Shown here: positions 2,985 through 23,238 of the stretch, one piece after another
Position numbering within the stretch: position 1 is the first letter of the stretch
Layout of the letters: the number at the start of each line of letters is the position of its first letter
Origin: a virus
Taxonomy: Duplodnaviria > Caudoviricetes
Virus record (IMG/VR): IMGVR_UViG_3300028326_000318
Coordinates: 1-29,540 of that record
Strand: one strand, 5' to 3'
DNA length: 29,540 nucleotides
Notes under the pieces: generated by a model
Seen by the model: only the letters and a program-made list of their open reading frames with translations
The model's database searches: none
What the model was told of the DNA's origin: nothing
Translations under genes and position numbers: made by a program

Positions 2985-5294
2985 ATGAAGACACTCAGCT
3001 GCGACATCGAGTCGTTCTGCAGCATGAACCTAGCCAAGTCGGGCGTATTCCGATACGCGGAGGGCGAGGATTTTGAAATCCTACTGTTCGGATACTCTGC
3101 CGACGGTGGCCCTGTGCACTTAGTTGACCTGGCCAGCGGCGAACAGCTTCCTGCGGACATAGTGGCCGCGCTCACCGATCCCAGTGTGACGAAATGGGCC
3201 TATAACGCGCTATTCGAGCGGGTGTGCCTATCCCGCTTTCTGGGCCTACCCACCGGGGAATACCTTGATCCGTCCTCGTGGCGCTGCACGATGGTCTGGG
3301 CGGCCACCCTGGGGCTCCCGCTTTCGTTGGAAGGTGTGGGCGCTGTTCTTAGTCTGGAAAAGCAGAAGCTCAAGGAGGGCAAAGACCTCATCCGGTTTTT
3401 CTGCCAGCCTTGTGCGCCGACAAACAGCAACGGCCAGCGCCTACGCAATCTGCCCGAACACGCGCCGGAGAAATGGGCGCTTTTTAAGGCGTACAACCGC
3501 CGCGACGTGGAAACGGAGTTAGCCATCCAAGCGCGGCTCGCGAAGTTCCCGGTGCCGGATAGCCTGTGGGAGGAGTATGTGCTCGACCAGCAGATCAACG
3601 ACCGCGGTATCGCACTGGACATGACGCTGGTTCACCAGGCGATCCGCTGTGACGAACAGTTCAAGCAGGCCCACCTGGACATAGCGCGGGAGGTCACTGG
3701 GCTGGAAAACCCCAACTCCCCAACACAGTTGAAAGCGTGGCTGGCTGAACAGGGCGTTGAGGCCGATTCCCTCTCCAAAGCCGCCGTGCTGACGCTACTG
3801 GAGAAGGCCGAGGGCAGCGTGGAGCTAGCGCTCTCTCTTAGGCAGGATCTCGCTAAGAGCAGCGTCAAGAAGTACGCCGCCATGGAGAACGTCGTCTGCC
3901 GGGATGGCCGCGCGCGAGGTCTTCTCCAGTTTTATGGCGCCAATCGATCCGGTCGATACGCAGGGAGGCTTATCCAAGTTCAGAATTTGCCAGTCAACCG
4001 CTTGCCCGATTTGGAGGTCGCACGCCAGCTGATCTACGAGGGTCAGTTCGAAACGGCAGAGATGCTCTACGAGTCCGTCCCGATTGTGCTGTCGGAGCTC
4101 ATTCGGACCGCGTTCATCCCCAGACCCGGACATCGCTTTTTCGTGGCCGACTTCAGTGCGATCGAGGCGCGCGTTATTGCGTGGATGGCTGGCGAGCAAT
4201 GGCGGTTGGACGTGTTCAAGAACGGCGGCGACATCTACTGCGCGTCCGCGTCGCAGATGTTCCATGTGCCGGTGGAGAAGCACGGCGTCAACGGTCACCT
4301 CCGGCAGAAGGGCAAAATTGCGGAACTCGCTTGCATTGCCGAAGGCAGCCTGGTGCTGACGGACAGCGGCCTTGTCCCCATCGAAAAAGTCGAACCGGAC
4401 ATGCGCCTATGGGATGGCGACGCCTGGGTGGCGCATGACGGTGTCGTCTTCAACGGCGCAAAAGAAGTTATCGTGTATCAAGGGCTCAGAGCAACCCCGG
4501 ATCACCTCGTCTGGATCGAGGGACAATCGCAGCCAGTTCCGTTTGGATCCGCCGCCGCAAATGGCGCGCGCCTTGTTCGATTCGGGGAGACGGGCGAGAG
4601 AATGATGCCCTTACAAGGCCTTACGAAAGTTTATGATATCCGAAACGCAGGGCCGCGGCACCGGTTTATCGTATCCGGGCGGCTTGTGCACAACTGTGGC
4701 TACGGAGGTGGAGTCGGCGCGTTGAAGGCGATGGGCGCAGTCGAGATGGGCGTGCCGGAAAGCGAGCTGCCCGACCTCATCCAACAATGGCGCACGGCCA
4801 ATCCCAATATCGTGAAACTCTGGCGGGCTGTGGACACCGCCGTGAAGACCTGCGTCAAGCAGCACACCGCTACGGTAACACACGGTATCCAATTTGTCTA
4901 CCTCAGTGGAATCCTATTTATCACCCTCCCCTCCGGCAGAAAGCTGGCCTATGTGAAACCGCGAATCGGCGAGAACCGGTTTGGTGGCGAGTCGGTCACC
5001 TACGAAGGCGTCACCGGCATGAAAAAGTGGGACCGAATTGAAAGCTTTGCTGGAAAGTTTGTGGAGAACATTGTCCAGGCAACGGCGCGGGACCTGCTTG
5101 CGGGGGCCATGCTTCGGCTTGATGCCGCCGGATATCGGATCGTGATGCATGTGCATGACGAGGTGGTCGTCGAGGCACCAGCGGACTCCTCGCTGGAGAA
5201 CATCTGCGCCATCATGGGGCAGGTGCCCACCTGGGCGGACGGCATGTTGATGCGGGCCGATGGGTTCGTCTGTGATTTCTACAAGAAGGAATGA
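2985..5294 (+). CDS. Phage family-A DNA polymerase, 769-aa precursor containing an intein (648 aa spliced)
   Basis: AAGGAG SD before ATG 2985; Exo I DIE, motif A ADFSAIEAR, motif B RQKGKIAELA|CGYGG, motif C HVHDE. Confidence 0.95.
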   Translation: MKTLSCDIESFCSMNLAKSGVFRYAEGEDFEILLFGYSADGGPVHLVDLASGEQLPADIVAALTDPSVTKWAYNALFERVCLSRFLGLPTGEYLDPSSWRCTMVWAATLGLPLSLEGVGAVLSLEKQKLKEGKDLIRFFCQPCAPTNSNGQRLRNLPEHAPEKWALFKAYNRRDVETELAIQARLAKFPVPDSLWEEYVLDQQINDRGIALDMTLVHQAIRCDEQFKQAHLDIAREVTGLENPNSPTQLKAWLAEQGVEADSLSKAAVLTLLEKAEGSVELALSLRQDLAKSSVKKYAAMENVVCRDGRARGLLQFYGANRSGRYAGRLIQVQNLPVNRLPDLEVARQLIYEGQFETAEMLYESVPIVLSELIRTAFIPRPGHRFFVADFSAIEARVIAWMAGEQWRLDVFKNGGDIYCASASQMFHVPVEKHGVNGHLRQKGKIAELACIAEGSLVLTDSGLVPIEKVEPDMRLWDGDAWVAHDGVVFNGAKEVIVYQGLRATPDHLVWIEGQSQPVPFGSAAANGARLVRFGETGERMMPLQGLTKVYDIRNAGPRHRFIVSGRLVHNCGYGGGVGALKAMGAVEMGVPESELPDLIQQWRTANPNIVKLWRAVDTAVKTCVKQHTATVTHGIQFVYLSGILFITLPSGRKLAYVKPRIGENRFGGESVTYEGVTGMKKWDRIESFAGKFVENIVQATARDLLAGAMLRLDAAGYRIVMHVHDEVVVEAPADSSLENICAIMGQVPTWADGMLMRADGFVCDFYKKE
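4332..4694 (+). mobile_element. Mini-intein (121 aa, no homing endonuclease) in polymerase motif B
   Basis: Block A CIAEGSLV, block B TPDH, block F VYDI, block G VHN followed by Cys+1; removal restores KIAELACGYGGG. Confidence 0.93.
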
Positions 5295-5812: not shown

Positions 5813-6223
5813 ATGACCATCAGCAAGTACAACCACGAGGGCTACCACGACCCAACGGCCTACGAAGCCTTCTCCAAAATGAATCACTTTCGCCCCATCG
5901 TCTACGTATGCTCCCCATACGCCGGGGACGTAGAGCGGAACACCACCAACGCCCGGCGGTACTGCCGGTTCGTAGTCGAGCGCGGCTGCATCCCTATCGC
6001 GCCGCACCTGCTGTTCCCCCAGTTCATGCACGAAGACGACGAGCGTGATCTGGCGTTGTTCATGGGCATCGTGCTGCTCACGAAGTGCGCGGAACTCTGG
6101 GCGTTCGGCGACACCATCACCAAGGGCATGGAGCTCGAAATCGCCAGGGCAATTCGTAAGGGCCAGCGGGTTCGCTACTTTACCAAAGAATGTGAGGAGG
6201 TAACAGGATGGGTGAAGTTTTGA
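5813..6223 (+). CDS. DUF4406-like (nucleoside deoxyribosyltransferase-like fold) phage protein, 136 aa
   Basis: GGAGGT SD; EGYHDPTAYEA N-terminus; VYVCSPYAGD, PIAPHL, GMELEI motifs. Confidence 0.8.
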   Translation: MTISKYNHEGYHDPTAYEAFSKMNHFRPIVYVCSPYAGDVERNTTNARRYCRFVVERGCIPIAPHLLFPQFMHEDDERDLALFMGIVLLTKCAELWAFGDTITKGMELEIARAIRKGQRVRYFTKECEEVTGWVKF

Positions 6224-6750
6224 AAGAGGCACTTAGGCTCGCTATGAATTATGACGGTTCATACAGCGGAGCAGTAGATGCAGGCTTTTTGTATCTGTTA
6301 CAGCACAAAGATGGCAAAGGCAAAGAAAAGCCTGCCAAATGTGTTTATGTGATCGAAACCGACAATGGTCTTGTGAAAATCGGTGTATCACAGTCTCCTA
6401 AGGCCCGAATCAAGACTATTGAAAAGACCGGTGGTCACATAATTGTCAATCAGTATATATCCGAACCATGCAAAATTGCTCAGATGATAGAACTAAGCGC
6501 ACACAAATCCTTCCAGGCCAAACGAAAAATTGGCGAGTATTTCACTTGCACATTCGACGAAGCTGTGGCGCAAGTAGAAAGGCTTATCAAACAGCTATCT
6601 GCGGAGGTAGCACCCGAATTAACCGCTGAAGGCGAGTTAATCGTGCCATCCTGCGGCTCTTGCCCCACTTCGGGGGGCGACACGACCTGCTGCGGTAGCT
6701 CACAGGGCAAGTTTGGAGAGGAGGAAACGACGGATGGACTATCCCGTTAA
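6208..6750 (+). CDS. T5orf172/GIY-YIG-like domain protein
   Basis: VYVIE...VKIGVS..PKARI...E..AH..F...R..GEYF signature; visibly lower GC than its neighbours. Confidence 0.75.
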   Translation: MGEVLKEALRLAMNYDGSYSGAVDAGFLYLLQHKDGKGKEKPAKCVYVIETDNGLVKIGVSQSPKARIKTIEKTGGHIIVNQYISEPCKIAQMIELSAHKSFQAKRKIGEYFTCTFDEAVAQVERLIKQLSAEVAPELTAEGELIVPSCGSCPTSGGDTTCCGSSQGKFGEEETTDGLSR

Positions 6751-9094: not shown

Positions 9095-9229
9095 CACAAG
9101 GAGAGGCACAAGTGGAACAATTCTACTCCTTATATTCAAAATGGATTAGGGGAAACAAGGAACAACATTACGAGCACACCCGCGCGTAAGGAATATAAGG
9201 ACGGAATTGTTCCACTGTTCCACTTGTTC
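9087..9229. repeat. AT-richer inverted/direct repeat cluster, candidate replication origin
   Basis: agtggaacaattc(9111-9123)/gaattgttccact(9204-9216); ccttatattc(9128-9137)/gaatataagg(9191-9200); ccttgt-aac-acaagg; iterated TGTTCC. Confidence 0.65.
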
Positions 9230-9247
9230 TCGATTCAGGAGGTAAAA

Positions 9248-9763
9248 ATGGAGAGATCAATTTCCGAAGCCTATATCAGAAGGTGCCACAAACGGCTCAT
9301 TGAGCTAGGCGCGCCTTTAGAGGATTGGTTCTGCGAAAATGTCTATGACGAGGAAGATGCGTCATTCACCTGTGAACTGTGCGACTGCGTTAAGGTTCGG
9401 TATGTGCATGTCATGCGTAATCTACGATACCTGGGCACAGTCTCCGTCGGCTGCATCTGCGCGGGCATCATGGAAGGCGACATTCTGGCCGCGCAGGAGC
9501 GTGAGCGTGATGCGCGAAACCGCGCCCAACGCAGGAAGAACTTCGTGAATAAAGGCTGGACACCTTTGAAAAACGGAGTTCTGGTCCGTTCCTATCACGG
9601 GACGGTCTGCAAGATCATGGTGAGCAAATACAACAAGCAGCAGTATGGTGTGCTGTATCAGGGCCGGTGGTGCTGGAACTATCACCAAAAGCCGATAACC
9701 AGTTTCGCCCAAGCGGCCACAGCAGCCTTCTACGCTTACGAAAAGGAGCATGCCAATGCGTGA
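9248..9763 (+). CDS. Hypothetical Cys/His-rich (probably Zn-binding) protein, 171 aa
   Basis: AGGAGGT SD before ATG 9248; CELC...H...GCIC. Confidence 0.75.
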   Translation: MERSISEAYIRRCHKRLIELGAPLEDWFCENVYDEEDASFTCELCDCVKVRYVHVMRNLRYLGTVSVGCICAGIMEGDILAAQERERDARNRAQRRKNFVNKGWTPLKNGVLVRSYHGTVCKIMVSKYNKQQYGVLYQGRWCWNYHQKPITSFAQAATAAFYAYEKEHANA

Positions 9764-10040
9764 GAAGCTCAATGAGCAAAACCTGGTACAGGCCGTCCGT
9801 CGGATGGGCGGCCTCGCGCCCAAGTTCACCTCCCCCGGATGGGCAGGCGCGCCCGACCGCCTTGTCCTGCTCCCGGGTGGGCGCCTGGCGTTCGTGGAAG
9901 TGAAAGCGCCGGGGAAGACCCTGCGCCCGCTGCAGGTAAGGCGGAAAGGGCAGCTGGAGGCGCTAGGGTTTCAGGTGTACGTGATCGACCGACCGGATCA
10001 AATTCCAGAGATTCTGCACGAAGGGGGTGATGCCCAATGA
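9756..10040 (+). CDS. VRR-NUC domain nuclease
   Basis: SPGWAGAPDRL...FVEVKAPG..LRPLQ; alternative ATG at 9750. Confidence 0.9.
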   Translation: MREKLNEQNLVQAVRRMGGLAPKFTSPGWAGAPDRLVLLPGGRLAFVEVKAPGKTLRPLQVRRKGQLEALGFQVYVIDRPDQIPEILHEGGDAQ

Positions 10041-10132
10041 AGTTCATACCGCACGAGTACCAGAAGTTCGTGACCGAGTACATCGAACGCCATGAGGTGG
10101 CCGCCGTACTCCTAGATATGGGCTTGGGTTGA
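10037..10132 (+). CDS. N-terminal 31-aa segment of the SNF2 helicase (MKFIPHEYQKFVTEYIERHEVAAVLLDMGLG*)
   Basis: SD plus ATGA overlap with the VRR-NUC stop; Q-motif PHEYQ and first half of Walker A (DMGLG), then TGA. Confidence 0.8.
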   Translation: MKFIPHEYQKFVTEYIERHEVAAVLLDMGLG

Positions 10133-11397
10133 GCAAAACCGTGATTACCCTGACCGCCATTTTCGACCTGTGCCTGGACAGCTTCGAGGTGCGCAAGGTA
10201 CTGATCGTCGCCCCGTTGCGGGTTGCGCGGGATACCTGGCCATCGGAGATTCAGAAGTGGGACCACCTGCGGGGGCTGACCTACTCGGTAGCGGTGGGCA
10301 CGGAGCCCGAGCGGAAGATCGCGCTGCGGCAGCGGGCCAGCGTGTACATCATCAACCGTGAGAACGTCCAGTGGCTGATCCAAGGCAGCGGGCTTCCGTT
10401 TGACTACGACATGGTCGTGATTGACGAGTTGTCCTCCTTCAAGTCCCACCAGGCCAAGCGATTCCGGAGCCTGATGAAAGCGCGCCCCCATGTCAAGCGG
10501 ATCGTGGGCCTGACGGGCACCCCCTCCAGCAACGGCCTAATGGACCTGTGGGCGGAATTCCGGCTGCTGGACATGGGCAAGCGCCTGGGCCGGTTCATCA
10601 CCCACTACAGGGACGAGTTCTTCACCCCCGACAAGCGGAACCAGCAGATGGTGTTCAGCTACAAGCCCAGGCCCGGCGCTGAGGACGAGATCTACCGCCG
10701 GATCGCGGACATCACCATCAGCATGAAGAGCGCCGACTACCTGAAGATGCCGGAGTGCGTGATGAACGAGGTGCCGGTGACGCTCTCCGATGTGGAGCAC
10801 AGCGCCTACGACACACTTCGCAGGGAACTGGTCCTGTCCCTGAAGGGTGAGGAGATCGACGCCGTGAACGCGGCCGCCCTCTCCGGCAAGCTCTGCCAGA
10901 TGGCCAACGGCGCGGTGTACGGCGAAGAAAAGCGCGTCGTCCACATCCATGACCGGAAGCTGGACGCGCTGGAGGACCTGATCGAAGCCGCGAACGGTAA
11001 GCCCGTGCTGGTGGCCTACTGGTTCAAGCACGATCTGGCCCGTATCAAGGAGCGCTTCCATGCGCGGGAGATCAGGACGAGCAAGGACATCCGCGACTGG
11101 AATGCCGGCACAATGCCGGTCGGCCTGATCCACCCCGCATCTGCCGGGCACGGTTTGAATTTGCAGGCAGGCGGATCAACGCTGGTGTGGTTCGGGCTGA
11201 CCTGGAGCCTTGAGCTCTACCAGCAGACCAACGCCCGGCTCTGGCGCCAGGGGCAGCGGGCAGAGACCGTGGTCATCCACCACGTCATCACGAAGGGCAC
11301 AATCGACGAGCAGATCGTCGCCGCCCTGAAACAAAAGGATAAGACCCAAGCCGCGCTGATTGATGCGGTGAAGGCGAGTTTGGAGGGATACCAATGA
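10129..11397 (+). CDS. SNF2-family helicase, main segment (begins at the KT of Walker A)
   Basis: DELS (motif II), LTGTP, GHGLNLQ, QTNARLWRQGQ; TTG start overlaps the TGA of the upstream segment. Confidence 0.88.
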   Translation: MSKTVITLTAIFDLCLDSFEVRKVLIVAPLRVARDTWPSEIQKWDHLRGLTYSVAVGTEPERKIALRQRASVYIINRENVQWLIQGSGLPFDYDMVVIDELSSFKSHQAKRFRSLMKARPHVKRIVGLTGTPSSNGLMDLWAEFRLLDMGKRLGRFITHYRDEFFTPDKRNQQMVFSYKPRPGAEDEIYRRIADITISMKSADYLKMPECVMNEVPVTLSDVEHSAYDTLRRELVLSLKGEEIDAVNAAALSGKLCQMANGAVYGEEKRVVHIHDRKLDALEDLIEAANGKPVLVAYWFKHDLARIKERFHAREIRTSKDIRDWNAGTMPVGLIHPASAGHGLNLQAGGSTLVWFGLTWSLELYQQTNARLWRQGQRAETVVIHHVITKGTIDEQIVAALKQKDKTQAALIDAVKASLEGYQ

Positions 11398-12178: not shown

Positions 12179-13225
<1,047 letters not shown>

Positions 13226-13307
13226 AACCCGAATAACCTATGATTCGCTTGACTTTCATCTCCTTCTGAGTGAGTAATGTCATACCCAATCCGAAGGAGG
13301 TTTTGAC

Positions 13308-14243
13308 ATGACAATTGAAACCCACACCACCGACCGCAAAGCGCTGGCGCACAGGATTTCGGAACTTCTCCAAGTGGACGTAGCCTACGCCGGCGTCCCA
13401 TCCTGCGCCTACAACGTCGGGCCGGTGACGATCGACCGCGGCGGCGCCATCCACATCGACGATCCGGAAGCGCAGGGGTCCCTGACGCCCTTTCTCATCG
13501 AGCAGGGCTGGATGGCGCCAGAAAGTGAAACGGTGCCGGTTGCGGAACTGGATGCTGCCCTGGTTGCGGAACTGGATGCTGCCCTGGTTGCGGAACTGGA
13601 TGCTGCCCTGGTTGCGGAATCTGTCGCGGACCTGGACGCCGATTTGAAAGCCCCACCCGCCATTGAGCACATGGACATCAGCGTCCCTGCGGAGGGGCTG
13701 ACGGTCGACAACCTGAAGAACCTGGTTTTCATGCTTTACAGCGAGCAGTACCTGCTGAACCGGGCGGTGGGCACGGAGGTGCTCTCCATCTCCGACGGCT
13801 TGATCGCCTGGCTGAAGGAATACACCCCTGAGACGCCGGACGACTTCTCCGCCCTGTTGGCTGATTTCAAAGCCCTGGGTGAACTGGACGGCTTTGACGT
13901 CCAAAACGGACAGGTCACGCTGACGTTCCCCTTCGAGGAACAGAAGCCGGAGAACTGGTCGGCGTACGGGTTCCTGCTTGGACATATCGTCAAAGCGGCG
14001 CAGGCTGCCGAGCGCGTCTTCCCTAAGCGCTGCCAGCCGGAGAACGAGAAGTATTTCATGCGCAGCTGGCTCCTGCGGCTGGGGCTGGGCGGTCCGGAAT
14101 TCAAGCCGCTACGGGCGCTGCTGCTACGAAACCTGAAAGGCCACACCGCCTTCCCTGACGATGCCGCTGCCAAGAAGCACAAGACCCGGTACGCGGAAAA
14201 GCGCAAAAACGCCAAAGCGGCGAAGGAGGCGACCTCCGAATGA
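13308..14243 (+). CDS. Phage 'virulence-related' protein with an amidoligase-like C-terminal domain, 311 aa
   Basis: AAGGAGG SD; YAGVPSCAY N-terminal motif; ENEKYFMRSWLLRLG...GHTAF C-terminus. Confidence 0.75.
   Translation: MTIETHTTDRKALAHRISELLQVDVAYAGVPSCAYNVGPVTIDRGGAIHIDDPEAQGSLTPFLIEQGWMAPESETVPVAELDAALVAELDAALVAELDAALVAESVADLDADLKAPPAIEHMDISVPAEGLTVDNLKNLVFMLYSEQYLLNRAVGTEVLSISDGLIAWLKEYTPETPDDFSALLADFKALGELDGFDVQNGQVTLTFPFEEQKPENWSAYGFLLGHIVKAAQAAERVFPKRCQPENEKYFMRSWLLRLGLGGPEFKPLRALLLRNLKGHTAFPDDAAAKKHKTRYAEKRKNAKAAKEATSE
13538..13619 (+). repeat. Perfect 24-bp in-frame tandem repeat x3.4 (VAELDAAL)
   Basis: ggttgcggaactggatgctgccct at 13538, 13562 and 13586, partial copy at 13610. 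Confidence 0.95.
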
Positions 14244-18727: not shown

Positions 18728-20032
18728 TTGAATACGAGCATGAACCTGCAGCGGATCCCTGTTGAGATGCTGAGGCCCGCGAAATACAACCCGCGAAAAG
18801 ACCTGAAACCTGGCGATCCGGCCTATGAAAAGATCAAGCGGAGCCTCCGCGAGTTTGGCTATGTCGATCCCGTCATCTGGAATGAGGTGACCGGGAACAT
18901 CGTGGGCGGGCACCAGCGCTACAAGGTGCTGACGGCGGAAGGCGCCACCGAGATCGACTGCGTGGTCGTACACATCGAGGATCCGGCTGATGAAAAAGCG
19001 CTCAATATCGCGCTCAATAAAGCTGTCGGCGAATGGGAGCCCGTTGCGCTGGCTGACCTGCTTACCGATTTGCAGCAGAACGGGTATGATCTGGACGCGA
19101 CCGGGTTTGACGCAGTTGAAATCAACGAGCTGTTTTCCAAGATCCATGACAAGGAGATCAAAGAAGACAGCTTCGATGTGGACGCCGAATTGCAGAACCC
19201 GTGTTTTTCTAGGCTGGATGATGTATGGCATCTTGGCCACCATCGCGTCATTTGCGGAGACGGCACGCTCCCGGGCACCTTTGAAAAGCTGATGCAGGGC
19301 ACAAAGGCTAACCTCGTATGTGTAGACCCGCCGTATCTTGTTTCGCTGGAAAGCGCGTCAGGCAAGATCAAAAATGACGACCTGAATGATGCAGAAGGCT
19401 ATGATTTTATCGCAAAAGCTCTTAACCGGCTCGCGGAAAACATGGCCCTGGACGCGTCCATCTACATGTTCCACGCCGACTCCAAGGGACTGCTTTTCCG
19501 GCGTGCATTTGATGCGGCGGGTTTCCACCTGGGCGCAACGGTCATTTGGAAAAAGGACCAACTAGTGCTGACGCGTACCGACTTCAAGTACCTGCATGAG
19601 CCGATTCTCTATGGCTGGCTTAAAAAGGGCAAACACAAATGGTATGGCGACCAGAAGCAAACCACCATCATCGAATTCCCGCGTATCAAAAACTCCAAGA
19701 CCGAGGGCTGCGGCCACCCCTCTTCCAAACCTGTTCCGCTGATCGCTTACCTGGTCAAACTCTCGACGCTGACGAACAGTGTGGTGCTGGACTCCTTCCT
19801 GGGCTCCGCCTCGACATTAATGGCCTGCGATCAGCTCGACCGGGTCTGTTATGGCGTTGAGCTTGAGCCCAAGTTTGTGGACGTCGCCGTGAAAAGGTTC
19901 CTTGCGGCGCATGACGGAGACGCATCGGCGCCGGTCGTTTTTGTCGAGCGATTCGGTCAGAGGCTGACGTTTGATGAAGCAATGCAGTGCATGGAACTGG
20001 TAAAGAAGGAGGATTCCGAAGATAGTGAATGA
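18728..20032 (+). CDS. ParB-like N-domain plus beta-class N6A/N4C DNA methyltransferase, 434 aa
   Basis: AAGGAGG SD before TTG 18728; YNPRK, GGHQR (ParB); DPPY; HPSSKP; LDSFLGSAST. Confidence 0.92.
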   Translation: MNTSMNLQRIPVEMLRPAKYNPRKDLKPGDPAYEKIKRSLREFGYVDPVIWNEVTGNIVGGHQRYKVLTAEGATEIDCVVVHIEDPADEKALNIALNKAVGEWEPVALADLLTDLQQNGYDLDATGFDAVEINELFSKIHDKEIKEDSFDVDAELQNPCFSRLDDVWHLGHHRVICGDGTLPGTFEKLMQGTKANLVCVDPPYLVSLESASGKIKNDDLNDAEGYDFIAKALNRLAENMALDASIYMFHADSKGLLFRRAFDAAGFHLGATVIWKKDQLVLTRTDFKYLHEPILYGWLKKGKHKWYGDQKQTTIIEFPRIKNSKTEGCGHPSSKPVPLIAYLVKLSTLTNSVVLDSFLGSASTLMACDQLDRVCYGVELEPKFVDVAVKRFLAAHDGDASAPVVFVERFGQRLTFDEAMQCMELVKKEDSEDSE

Positions 20033-20777
20033 AAAGCACAAATTATATGCTGGTGCCGTTGTTGGTAAACTGGAATTGCTGGAACGGTTCAGAGATGCAA
20101 ATTCGTGGCGATGGCGTTGTATCTGTGCATGCGGTCAACATGTTACGCCATTGGAAAGCAATCTCCGGAACGGATATAGCAAAAGCTGTGGTAGCTGTGG
20201 CAAAAACGATTACCGTCCCTGCTCTGATGGCGTGACCGTTAAGGTCACTTCAACAAATGGCTTTACCTTTATCATTGATAAAGACGATGTGCCTCTGGTG
20301 AAAACCAAAAAGTGGCATGTCGTAACAAACCAGATAGGGCTACAAACCGTTATCGCATCAGATAAAACCTATTTGCATCATATGTTGATTGGCAACCATA
20401 AGGGGATGGAAGTCGATCATATTGACGGGAATCGTATGAACAACAGACGCGATAACCTCCGTGTTTGCACACATCAACAAAACCAGTGCAATCAGTCCCT
20501 ACAACGCAATAACACCTCTGGTGTTGCCGGGGTCAGCTATCATTCAGCGAGAAAGAAATTCATTGCGCGGATCAAGGCGTCTCAGCACGGTATCCATTTG
20601 GGTTACTACCTGACATTACTGGAAGCGACTCAGGCACGCAACGAAGCAATGCGCTTAATGTTTGGGGAGTATGCAAGAATGAACGATGTACCGGAAGCCC
20701 CTGAATGGATAAAAAACCTGGTCTATGAAAAGTGCAGCCGCTTCAAAGAGAAAGCGGCTGTTCCTTTTAGCGCATAA
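20025..20777 (+). CDS. Free-standing HNH endonuclease with C-terminal AP2-like domain
   Basis: WRCICACG...KSCG N-domain; VDHIDGNRMNNRRDNLR; NNTSGVAGV...HLGYY; lower GC. Confidence 0.88.
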   Translation: MNEKHKLYAGAVVGKLELLERFRDANSWRWRCICACGQHVTPLESNLRNGYSKSCGSCGKNDYRPCSDGVTVKVTSTNGFTFIIDKDDVPLVKTKKWHVVTNQIGLQTVIASDKTYLHHMLIGNHKGMEVDHIDGNRMNNRRDNLRVCTHQQNQCNQSLQRNNTSGVAGVSYHSARKKFIARIKASQHGIHLGYYLTLLEATQARNEAMRLMFGEYARMNDVPEAPEWIKNLVYEKCSRFKEKAAVPFSA

Positions 20778-22911: not shown

Positions 22912-23238
22912 ATGCCGCGAACACCGAAACGAACCTGCCGTCATCCCGGCTGCCCCAACCTCAGCGATGAGCCCTACTGCGAGCAGCACCGGAAGCAGTA
23001 CGCCCGCGAAACGGCGACACAGCGGGGCTACGACGGGCGCTGGCGGAAGGCGCGGGCGCTCTTTCTTCGGAAACACCCGCTCTGTGCGGAGTGCCGTAAG
23101 TATGGCGTACTGACCCCGGCCACCGTAGTCGATCACATCATCCCCCACCGCGGTGACGAGCGGCTTTTCTGGGATCAGGCTAATTTTCAGCCGCTCTGCA
23201 AGCCCTGCCATGATAAAAAGACTGGCGGCGGGCTATAG
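22912..23238 (+). CDS. Packaging-associated HNH endonuclease (HK97 gp74-like)
   Basis: RGYDGRW, HPLCAEC, VDHIIPHRGD, NFQPLCKPCHDKKT. Confidence 0.92.
   Translation: MPRTPKRTCRHPGCPNLSDEPYCEQHRKQYARETATQRGYDGRWRKARALFLRKHPLCAECRKYGVLTPATVVDHIIPHRGDERLFWDQANFQPLCKPCHDKKTGGGL

Follow-up and report, generated by a model that had tools for sequence, protein, structure and literature searches.

Short stop-led coding gaps in the Walker A motif of phage SNF2 helicases: a probable ribosomal bypass of likely HNH-cassette origin

To our knowledge, natural translational bypassing is known from very few genes. The closest described systems are MobA and the T4 gene 60 cassette, the latter called unique in 2022 (Manning & Atkins, 10.1101/2022.08.31.505936); the passages of that preprint used here describe the MobA bypass insert as blocking self-nicking and often outliving its nuclease, and gene 60 homologues as showing a Gly46/Asp45 shift. 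For the terminase gene of phage Hau3, the passages used of Antonov et al. 2023 (PMC10732093) report a bypass junction peptide by mass spectrometry in E. coli, with a UAA variant. In E. coli, the synthetic stop-hops of Weiss et al. 1987, as described in passages of Atkins et al. 2016 (PMC5009743), were low-level and obtained in signal-free constructs, and the same passages of that 2016 review state that no in-frame stop hop was known from nature. Here we describe a short gap in the Walker A motif of a phage SNF2 helicase that is almost certainly real, conserved and under selection. Judging from sequence comparison, its five bases are probably what is left of an HNH homing cassette, and a hop by tRNA-Gly probably carries the ribosome across them, which would give DMGLG-KT.

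The interrupted helicase and its gap family

The window, meaning the whole stretch of DNA analyzed, is a 29.5-kb virus record in which profile and family matches identify a replication operon (exonuclease, ssDNA-binding protein, PolA, VapE primase-helicase, VRR-NUC nuclease, and SNF2 helicase) together with a head module of the HK97 type. Each of the nine marker kinds of “Ca. Heliusvirales” is represented among its genes, and one close helicase match is filed under that group; its authors ask for nine marker genes and a TerL score of >700 against their model (PMC11283538), and the window may belong there. The sequence-only reading of this DNA had described an SNF2 Walker A motif split by a 5-nt insert with a stop, which we confirm: positions 10115-10140 read GAT ATG GGC TTG GGT TGA GC AAA ACC, with ORF1 (10037-10132, 31 aa) ending in DMGLG* and ORF2 (10129-11397) comprising 422 aa counted from its TTG start, or Lys-Thr and 418 further residues past the five-base gap. 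ORF2 belongs to the SNF2-related family (PF00176, phrog_62) and retains motif II DE, motif III TGTP, and motif VI QTxARLxRQGQ, so that all the marks of an SNF2-type phage helicase (phrog_62 match and motifs I, II, III, and VI) are present, motif I only across the gap. The features of the locus are as follows.

9750..10040, + strand: VRR-NUC-type endonuclease gene (phrog_93) with cassette-type last codons ...EGGDAQ*; its TGA overlaps the ORF1 ATG
10005..10036, + strand: putative left end of the cassette-derived segment, with 19 nt missing in gap-free L111 and L120, then the ORF1 ribosome-binding site; an HNH gene stands here in 24 gapped loci, none in the window
10037..10129, + strand: ORF1, 31 codons, the putative replacement helicase 5' end, MKFIPHEYQ...DMGLG
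10040..10048, + strand: 5' arm of the predicted long-range helix, AAGTTCATA, codons 2-4
10117..10125, + strand: 3' arm of the predicted helix, TATGGGCTT, codons 27-30, ending one base before the take-off codon
10127..10129, + strand: predicted take-off codon GGT (second Walker A Gly)
10130..10134, + strand: coding gap TGAGC, with the stop TGA at 10130-10132 and the predicted landing triplet AGC at 10132-10134
10135..11397, + strand: ORF2 body, 420 aa with motifs intact, running to the stop from AAA, where decoding is predicted to resume (Walker A Lys-Thr)

Assembly error, which the sequence-only reading had wanted checked, is ruled out. A helicase 92% identical at the amino acid level in another genome (L110) has the same five-base gap, its DNA aligning to 9756-11310 at 91% with no indel; in an independent DNA run, a single contig covers 10033-10169 and differs by 6 substitutions without any indel; and TGAGC itself is inserted in 29 IMG/VR stretches, where full-length helicase identity is 47-79%. 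Chance is rejected as well: a scan that accepted any 5 bases there gave 120 matches, of which 101 were in-register SNF2 genes, most of them with a stop at the head of the gap. In the any-base scans 91/101 five-base and 65/69 four-base gaps were stop-led (156/170).

The insert is therefore not unique to this genome: tBLASTn and pattern scans place it in a DMGLG/KT gap family of 192 among 327 unique loci (hereafter carriers), the gaps being 4-10 nt long and of 31 different sequences. Because most carriers came from pattern scans, 192/327 reflects the searches and not prevalence; among best tblastn relatives, picked regardless of the site, 3/79 viral and 7/79 GTDB loci had an insert. Carriers are 42-95% identical in amino acid sequence (14 of 474 aligned loci were dropped from the family alignment), and their gap lengths modulo 3 divide 108/60/24, so all three frames occur. 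Deposited genomes split or truncate the gapped gene, PV036450 listing a 31-aa hypothetical protein and a truncated ORF, and such entries would need correction.

Gaps of the same kind are carried by three helicase lineages about 24% identical or less. One, here called the second lineage (L724-L731, L738, L782, L798, L807, L821, and L822), has gaps of 2-10 nt after the Asp, Met, first Gly, Leu, or second Gly of DMGLG. In two further SNF2 lineages, both very distant (L432, L434, L460, L486, and L381), a stop-led gap of 4 or 5 nt at DMGLG/KT is accompanied by a strong 5' helix that differs in sequence; upstream of these five loci no HNH gene was seen.

Elsewhere on the + strand of the window, the DNA polymerase A gene contains a 121-aa insert (4332-4694), from CIAEG to LVHN then Cys, that looks mini-intein-like by eye, and Pfam gave no intein match over nearly the same stretch. 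Further free-standing nuclease genes lie at 6208-6750 (T5orf172), 20025-20777 (HNH_3, before the small terminase), and 22912-23238 (HNH, after the large terminase), and 12179-14243 holds phage genes for S-adenosylmethionine synthetase and an amidoligase-like protein. Between VapE primase-helicase and VRR-NUC is a 179-aa ORF with CxxC pairs (9224-9763), without a match in Pfam or PHROG; a relative of it lies near 4 carriers and 4 gap-free loci.

Codons on either side of the gap

The codon before the gap is GGY in all 170 carriers from the any-base scans, which are unbiased at that base, and in the window it is followed directly by the stop TGA. The last gap triplet lies within one mismatch of GGC/GGT in 191/192 carriers, being an exact GGY in 42 and one mismatch away in 149, and in gaps of at least 6 nt, where this triplet is freed from the stop, it is GGN in 32/32. 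The window's GGT to AGC is a near match with a first-position mismatch. A Leu-to-Leu hop (TTG to TTG) was also considered and rejected: it would give GLSKT in the window, and the Leu codon and gap start are not tied to one another.

An unlikely alternative is that the ribosome recodes at a shifty stop without a clean hop, with a separate event for every gap length (a -1 or +2 shift at 5 nt, a +1 shift at 4 and 7 nt, and readthrough at 6 and 9 nt) and one or more residues gained by the P-loop, as GLG-LS-KT or GLG-S-KT in the window. The stop that opens 178/192 gaps suits such recoding (the other 14 open on CCA/TCG/TGG/CGG/AGG, and an in-frame stop follows within 4-15 codons), and frameshifting or readthrough would still leave Gly-Lys-Thr in 103/192 carriers; moreover, TAGG(A/C/T) gaps resemble a TTAGG duplication, and two second-lineage loci (L736 and L821) have gaps of 1-2 nt. 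However, several mechanisms would be needed at one site, gap-free genes show no length variation there, and in 89/192 carriers, the window included, decoding of the last triplet would make the residue preceding the Walker Lys a Ser, Asp, or Arg, at a position where Gly is near-invariant in P-loops. The -1 slip from GGT to GGG suggested by the sequence-only reading fares poorly too, with gaps in all three frames and no conserved -1 codon among 107 five-base gaps (AGG 58, CGG 26, GGG 22, and TGG 1).

In the second lineage (about 24% identical), 10 distinct gaps follow four different motif codons (Asp, Met, first Gly, and second Gly), and 9 of their 10 landing triplets share at least 2/3 letters with the codon before the gap. 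Overall 20/30 landing letters match versus 11.4 when permuted (p=0.002, a value that overstates independence because the loci are related by descent); for this test 25 duplicates were dropped, 6/84 loci were unparsed, and L807, gapped by eye, lies outside the p value. Such a pattern is what re-pairing by the P-site tRNA would produce. Gaps after Met, however, have TTG/GTG/CTG/ATA as their last triplet, and after the gap at Asp the frame continues with ATG; since possible start codons remain, re-initiation also fits these cases.

Re-initiation is the basis of a quite improbable alternative, the two-chain helicase, in which ORF1 would terminate, ORF2 would restart at the overlapping TTG, and the 31-aa peptide would join in trans. 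The window does have the TTGA overlap; in the second lineage, a number of gaps are followed by a possible start codon with GLGKT intact behind it; and homing cassettes are known to split genes into two chains (MobA and MobE, in the passages used of 10.1101/2022.08.31.505936). Neither the overlap nor the TTGGG/TTGAG near-repeat, both remarked on in the sequence-only reading and real in the window, is conserved, however, with a start codon before the Walker Lys in only 18/107 carriers, yet Lys-Thr and the next codons are under selection: in carriers dN/dS is 0.086 across 14 codons from Lys-Thr on, and in the any-base scan synonymous variation is seen at the Lys and Thr codons that follow the gap, as expected if they are read in frame. 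Shine-Dalgarno pairing is weak before the TTG (-2.4 kcal/mol versus -11.4 before ORF1), which together with the 18/107 indicates that two chains are not the general rule. The cut would also fall inside the P-loop, leaving an MSKT product without the P-loop glycines, and the Gly-like last triplet would go unexplained. Of the four options that the sequence-only reading put forward, a 5-nt bypass restoring GLG-KT is the best fit.

Predicted long-range helix and selection

The most constrained synonymous columns in carriers, six of 435, are codons 2, 29, 3, 27, 31, and 4. Since one search pattern fixed codons 27, 29, and 31, only any-base scan counts are unbiased for them, and by these codon 29 is GGC in 165/170, versus a gene usage of 0.32; codons 2-4 are AAG in 80/80, TTC in 78/84, and ATA in 64/74, versus 0.49, 0.47, and 0.21. 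A predicted helix joins codons 2-4 with codons 27-30 (10040-10048 with 10117-10125 in the window), placing RNA structure upstream of the predicted take-off. The duplex beats synonymous shuffles in 67/112 carriers versus 6/64 gap-free loci, and in the three distant lineages in 11/11 gapped versus 1/13 gap-free loci (L738 counted as gapped; L736, with its 1-nt gap, in neither group). The distant lineages pair by other letters, the third position of the first Gly codon taking part in a G:C, A:U, or C:G pair, and the helix of the main family is conserved with little covariation. Taken by itself, the helix of the window does not reach significance (z -0.8; z -1.0), and the shuffle test is passed by 1/5 shifted-gap loci. 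Carriers share MKFIPH, whose codons also form the helix, and codons 2-3 are somewhat constrained in gap-free genes too (0.46 and 0.43).

By geometry, the 3' arm would sit inside the stalled ribosome and emerge over about the gap length. That the helix would drive the hop we infer by analogy with the gene 60 5' stem-loop (passages of 10.1101/2024.12.09.627546).

A conserved predicted RNA helix beside the site could also fit removal of the gap from the RNA, by cleavage-ligation or polymerase skipping, with normal translation afterwards. We know of no self-splicing intron as short as 4-10 nt, no boundary sequence is fixed, and the stop-first, tRNA-matching pattern points to the ribosome, all of which make this very improbable. 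None of 24 sequencing runs considered contained half of the window, and of the four examined the two labeled as RNA do not cover the junction. Long inserts such as introns were also sought at the site in two scans: one gave no long insert among 114 SNF2 matches of 120, and a metagenome scan allowing up to 30 nt gave no longer gap among 14 SNF2 matches of 117, its remaining matches being unrelated genes, so that it yields no prevalence.

It is equally doubtful that the gene is dead or dispensable, a cassette or slippage hot spot having knocked it out with the gap left uncrossed: many loci are prophages, and the three cultured second-lineage phages examined are gap-free or annotated full length, but ORF2 is at least 400 aa long in 143/144 carriers (132/132 gap-free loci), dN/dS in 34 disjoint carrier pairs (ORF1 0.138, ORF2 0.085) equals that in 35 gap-free pairs (0.124 and 0.092), and neighboring carriers often differ in gap sequence and length while keeping the rule. 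With its ORF2 motifs intact and these dN/dS values, which the sequence-only reading had called for, the gene is otherwise undecayed, as that reading held. Its suggestion of a programmed feature rather than a lesion is supported by the gap family, the intact ORF2, and purifying selection; it missed the family, the 5' helix, and the HNH cassette. The two ORFs jointly encode one conserved protein with noncoding bases between them.

The probable HNH cassette and comparison with described bypass systems

An HNH_3 gene lies directly before ORF1, between VRR-NUC and ORF1, in 24/137 carriers spread over deep and shallow clades, versus a weakly similar HNH gene before the helicase in 2/129 gap-free loci (Fisher p=5e-6, likewise overstating independence among related loci). 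At L108 the HNH gene begins in the place of the native helicase start and ends overlapping the new ORF1. No HNH gene is present between VRR-NUC and ORF1 in the window, which retains 19 extra bases and the cassette-type GGDAQ* junction. The GG[DV]Ax* junction is found in 78/113 HNH-less carriers (the window among them), 15/24 HNH carriers, and 0/126 gap-free loci; because this tail is a translated ribosome-binding site, it marks the cassette type, not HNH loss as such. Close gapped and gap-free pairs are 0.84-0.93 identical in ORF2 and mostly 0.54-0.70 in mid-ORF1, and changes between the two states on the ORF2 tree number 28 versus 60 when shuffled. In these alignments, ORF1 is exchanged as a block together with the gap.

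In all likelihood the gap marks where a homing-endonuclease cassette of the HNH kind ends on its right side. This bears out one part of a further suggestion of the earlier reading, a recombination footprint acting as a switch, but nothing suggests a reversible DNA switch. VRR-NUC was considered and rejected as the mobile nuclease: present in 137/137 carriers and 129/129 gap-free loci, it does not travel with the gap. The window's HNH_3 gene at 20025-20777 matches the cassette HNH over 29 residues only and was not regarded as the missing cassette gene. In the second lineage, HNH genes precede 5/16 gapped loci and are of several types, and therefore possibly belong to separate cassettes. In one genome (G005, which holds L160 and L169) this helicase is present in three close copies; one of them, at least, is gapped and lies next to a frameshifted HNH gene, and one is gap-free. 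Homing between prophages could occur in such a setting.

In the mechanism that we favor, a cassette made up of the HNH gene, a new ribosome-binding site, a recoded 31-codon 5' end, and the gap would have replaced the native 5' end of the helicase, the gap likely breaking the nuclease target in conserved Walker A DNA; in the window the HNH gene would have been lost since insertion. HNH cleavage and gap immunity are here assumed by analogy with MobA. The ribosome would stall, GGT occupying the P site and TGA the A site. Codons 2-4, which would have left the ribosome well before, would pair with codons 27-30 as these exit, favoring forward movement and blocking back-slip. Peptidyl-tRNA-Gly would detach, slide five bases, and re-pair at AGC (2/3 positions with a GCC anticodon), and decoding would resume at AAA to give DMGLG-KT.

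More tentatively, these loci may stand for a widespread type of bypass cassette reduced to the minimum, where the helix between first and exiting codons alone drives a 4-10-nt hop to a mismatched landing site. Since an initiating ribosome would cover the 5' arm, hop efficiency would then depend on ribosome loading, and HNH-less carriers would keep the gap as dosage control on the helicase. If so, the HNH-less phages (113/137 carriers) would retain it for regulation, and the class would include the first natural in-frame stop-hops. Nature supplies about 190 variants within a single lineage, and three distant lineages besides. With gap length, stop codon, take-off, and landing all varying within a 100-nt unit that fits a reporter, the family makes testable the minimal needs of bypassing, the looseness of P-site re-pairing, 5' pairing as a driver, and regulatory bypassing. 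It also suggests a further route for homing nucleases into conserved motifs without an intron or intein.

The helicase gap is a variant of the MobA/gene 60 kind, not previously reported in the literature searched. A search outside subscription journals and supplements found no report of this gap; the word “helicase” is absent from the main text of PMC10732093 and of the Manning & Atkins preprint, and the main text of the Heliusvirales paper (PMC11283538) contains no “SNF2,” “frameshift,” or “stop codon” and leaves the gap unmentioned.

SNF2 Walker A inteins (DMGLGK/C) share the conserved motif as a homing target, their site lying three bases further on, but leave by protein splicing. Among viral DMGLGKC loci, 29/46 (L543-L588) carry an intein-like HN-T/S/C end, with an insert of roughly 290-380 aa in large SNF2 helicases; no Walker A intein was found in the present helicase family. 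An explanation of the gap by intein immunity was set aside, inteins at GLGK/C occurring only in distant helicases and the HNH cassette explaining more.

Like the Streptomyces phage Hau3 terminase, the family has short gaps (7-10 nt there) in a phage ATPase gene and a slow A-site codon. According to the passages of PMC10732093 used, Hau3 bypass is triggered by a rare UUA codon, is a proposed growth-phase sensor, and concerns few genes, and they mention no homing nuclease, whereas the helicase gaps are stop-led, occur at about 190 loci, and would use tRNA-Gly. The synthetic stop-hops, as described in the passages used of PMC5009743, share the Gly-stop-Gly geometry with the 24/192 carriers whose stop-led gaps of 6 or 9 nt are in frame.

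The nearest parallels, taken from the passages of the cited preprints, remain gene 60 and MobA. Unlike gene 60, whose bypass is compared here with a gap known from sequence, the helicase family has gaps of 4-10 nt instead of about 50, leaving no room for a take-off/A-site stem-loop or mini-SD; its predicted helix pairs the gene's first codons with the codons immediately preceding take-off; and predicted landing is looser than in gene 60 homologues, mostly with one mismatch. The MobA element is a topoisomerase large-subunit insertion in T4-like phages with CTE/NTE tails; here the target is the Walker A motif of an SNF2 helicase in temperate phages of Bacillota, so that the helicase cassette works like MobA but is not that element, and it replaces the gene start rather than splitting the gene into two subunits. 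As in T4 gene 60/MobA, however, an endonuclease gene, a recoded replacement 5' end, and a coding gap in a conserved motif form one unit, the gap often outlasts the nuclease, and take-off, here as predicted, is at Gly or a neighboring codon before a stop or “hungry” AGG-type A-site codon. A 5' RNA helix, predicted here, is likewise described for gene 60 (Wills et al., 10.1101/2024.12.09.627546), and the way in which second-lineage landing tracks take-off parallels the Gly46/Asp45 shift of gene 60 homologues.
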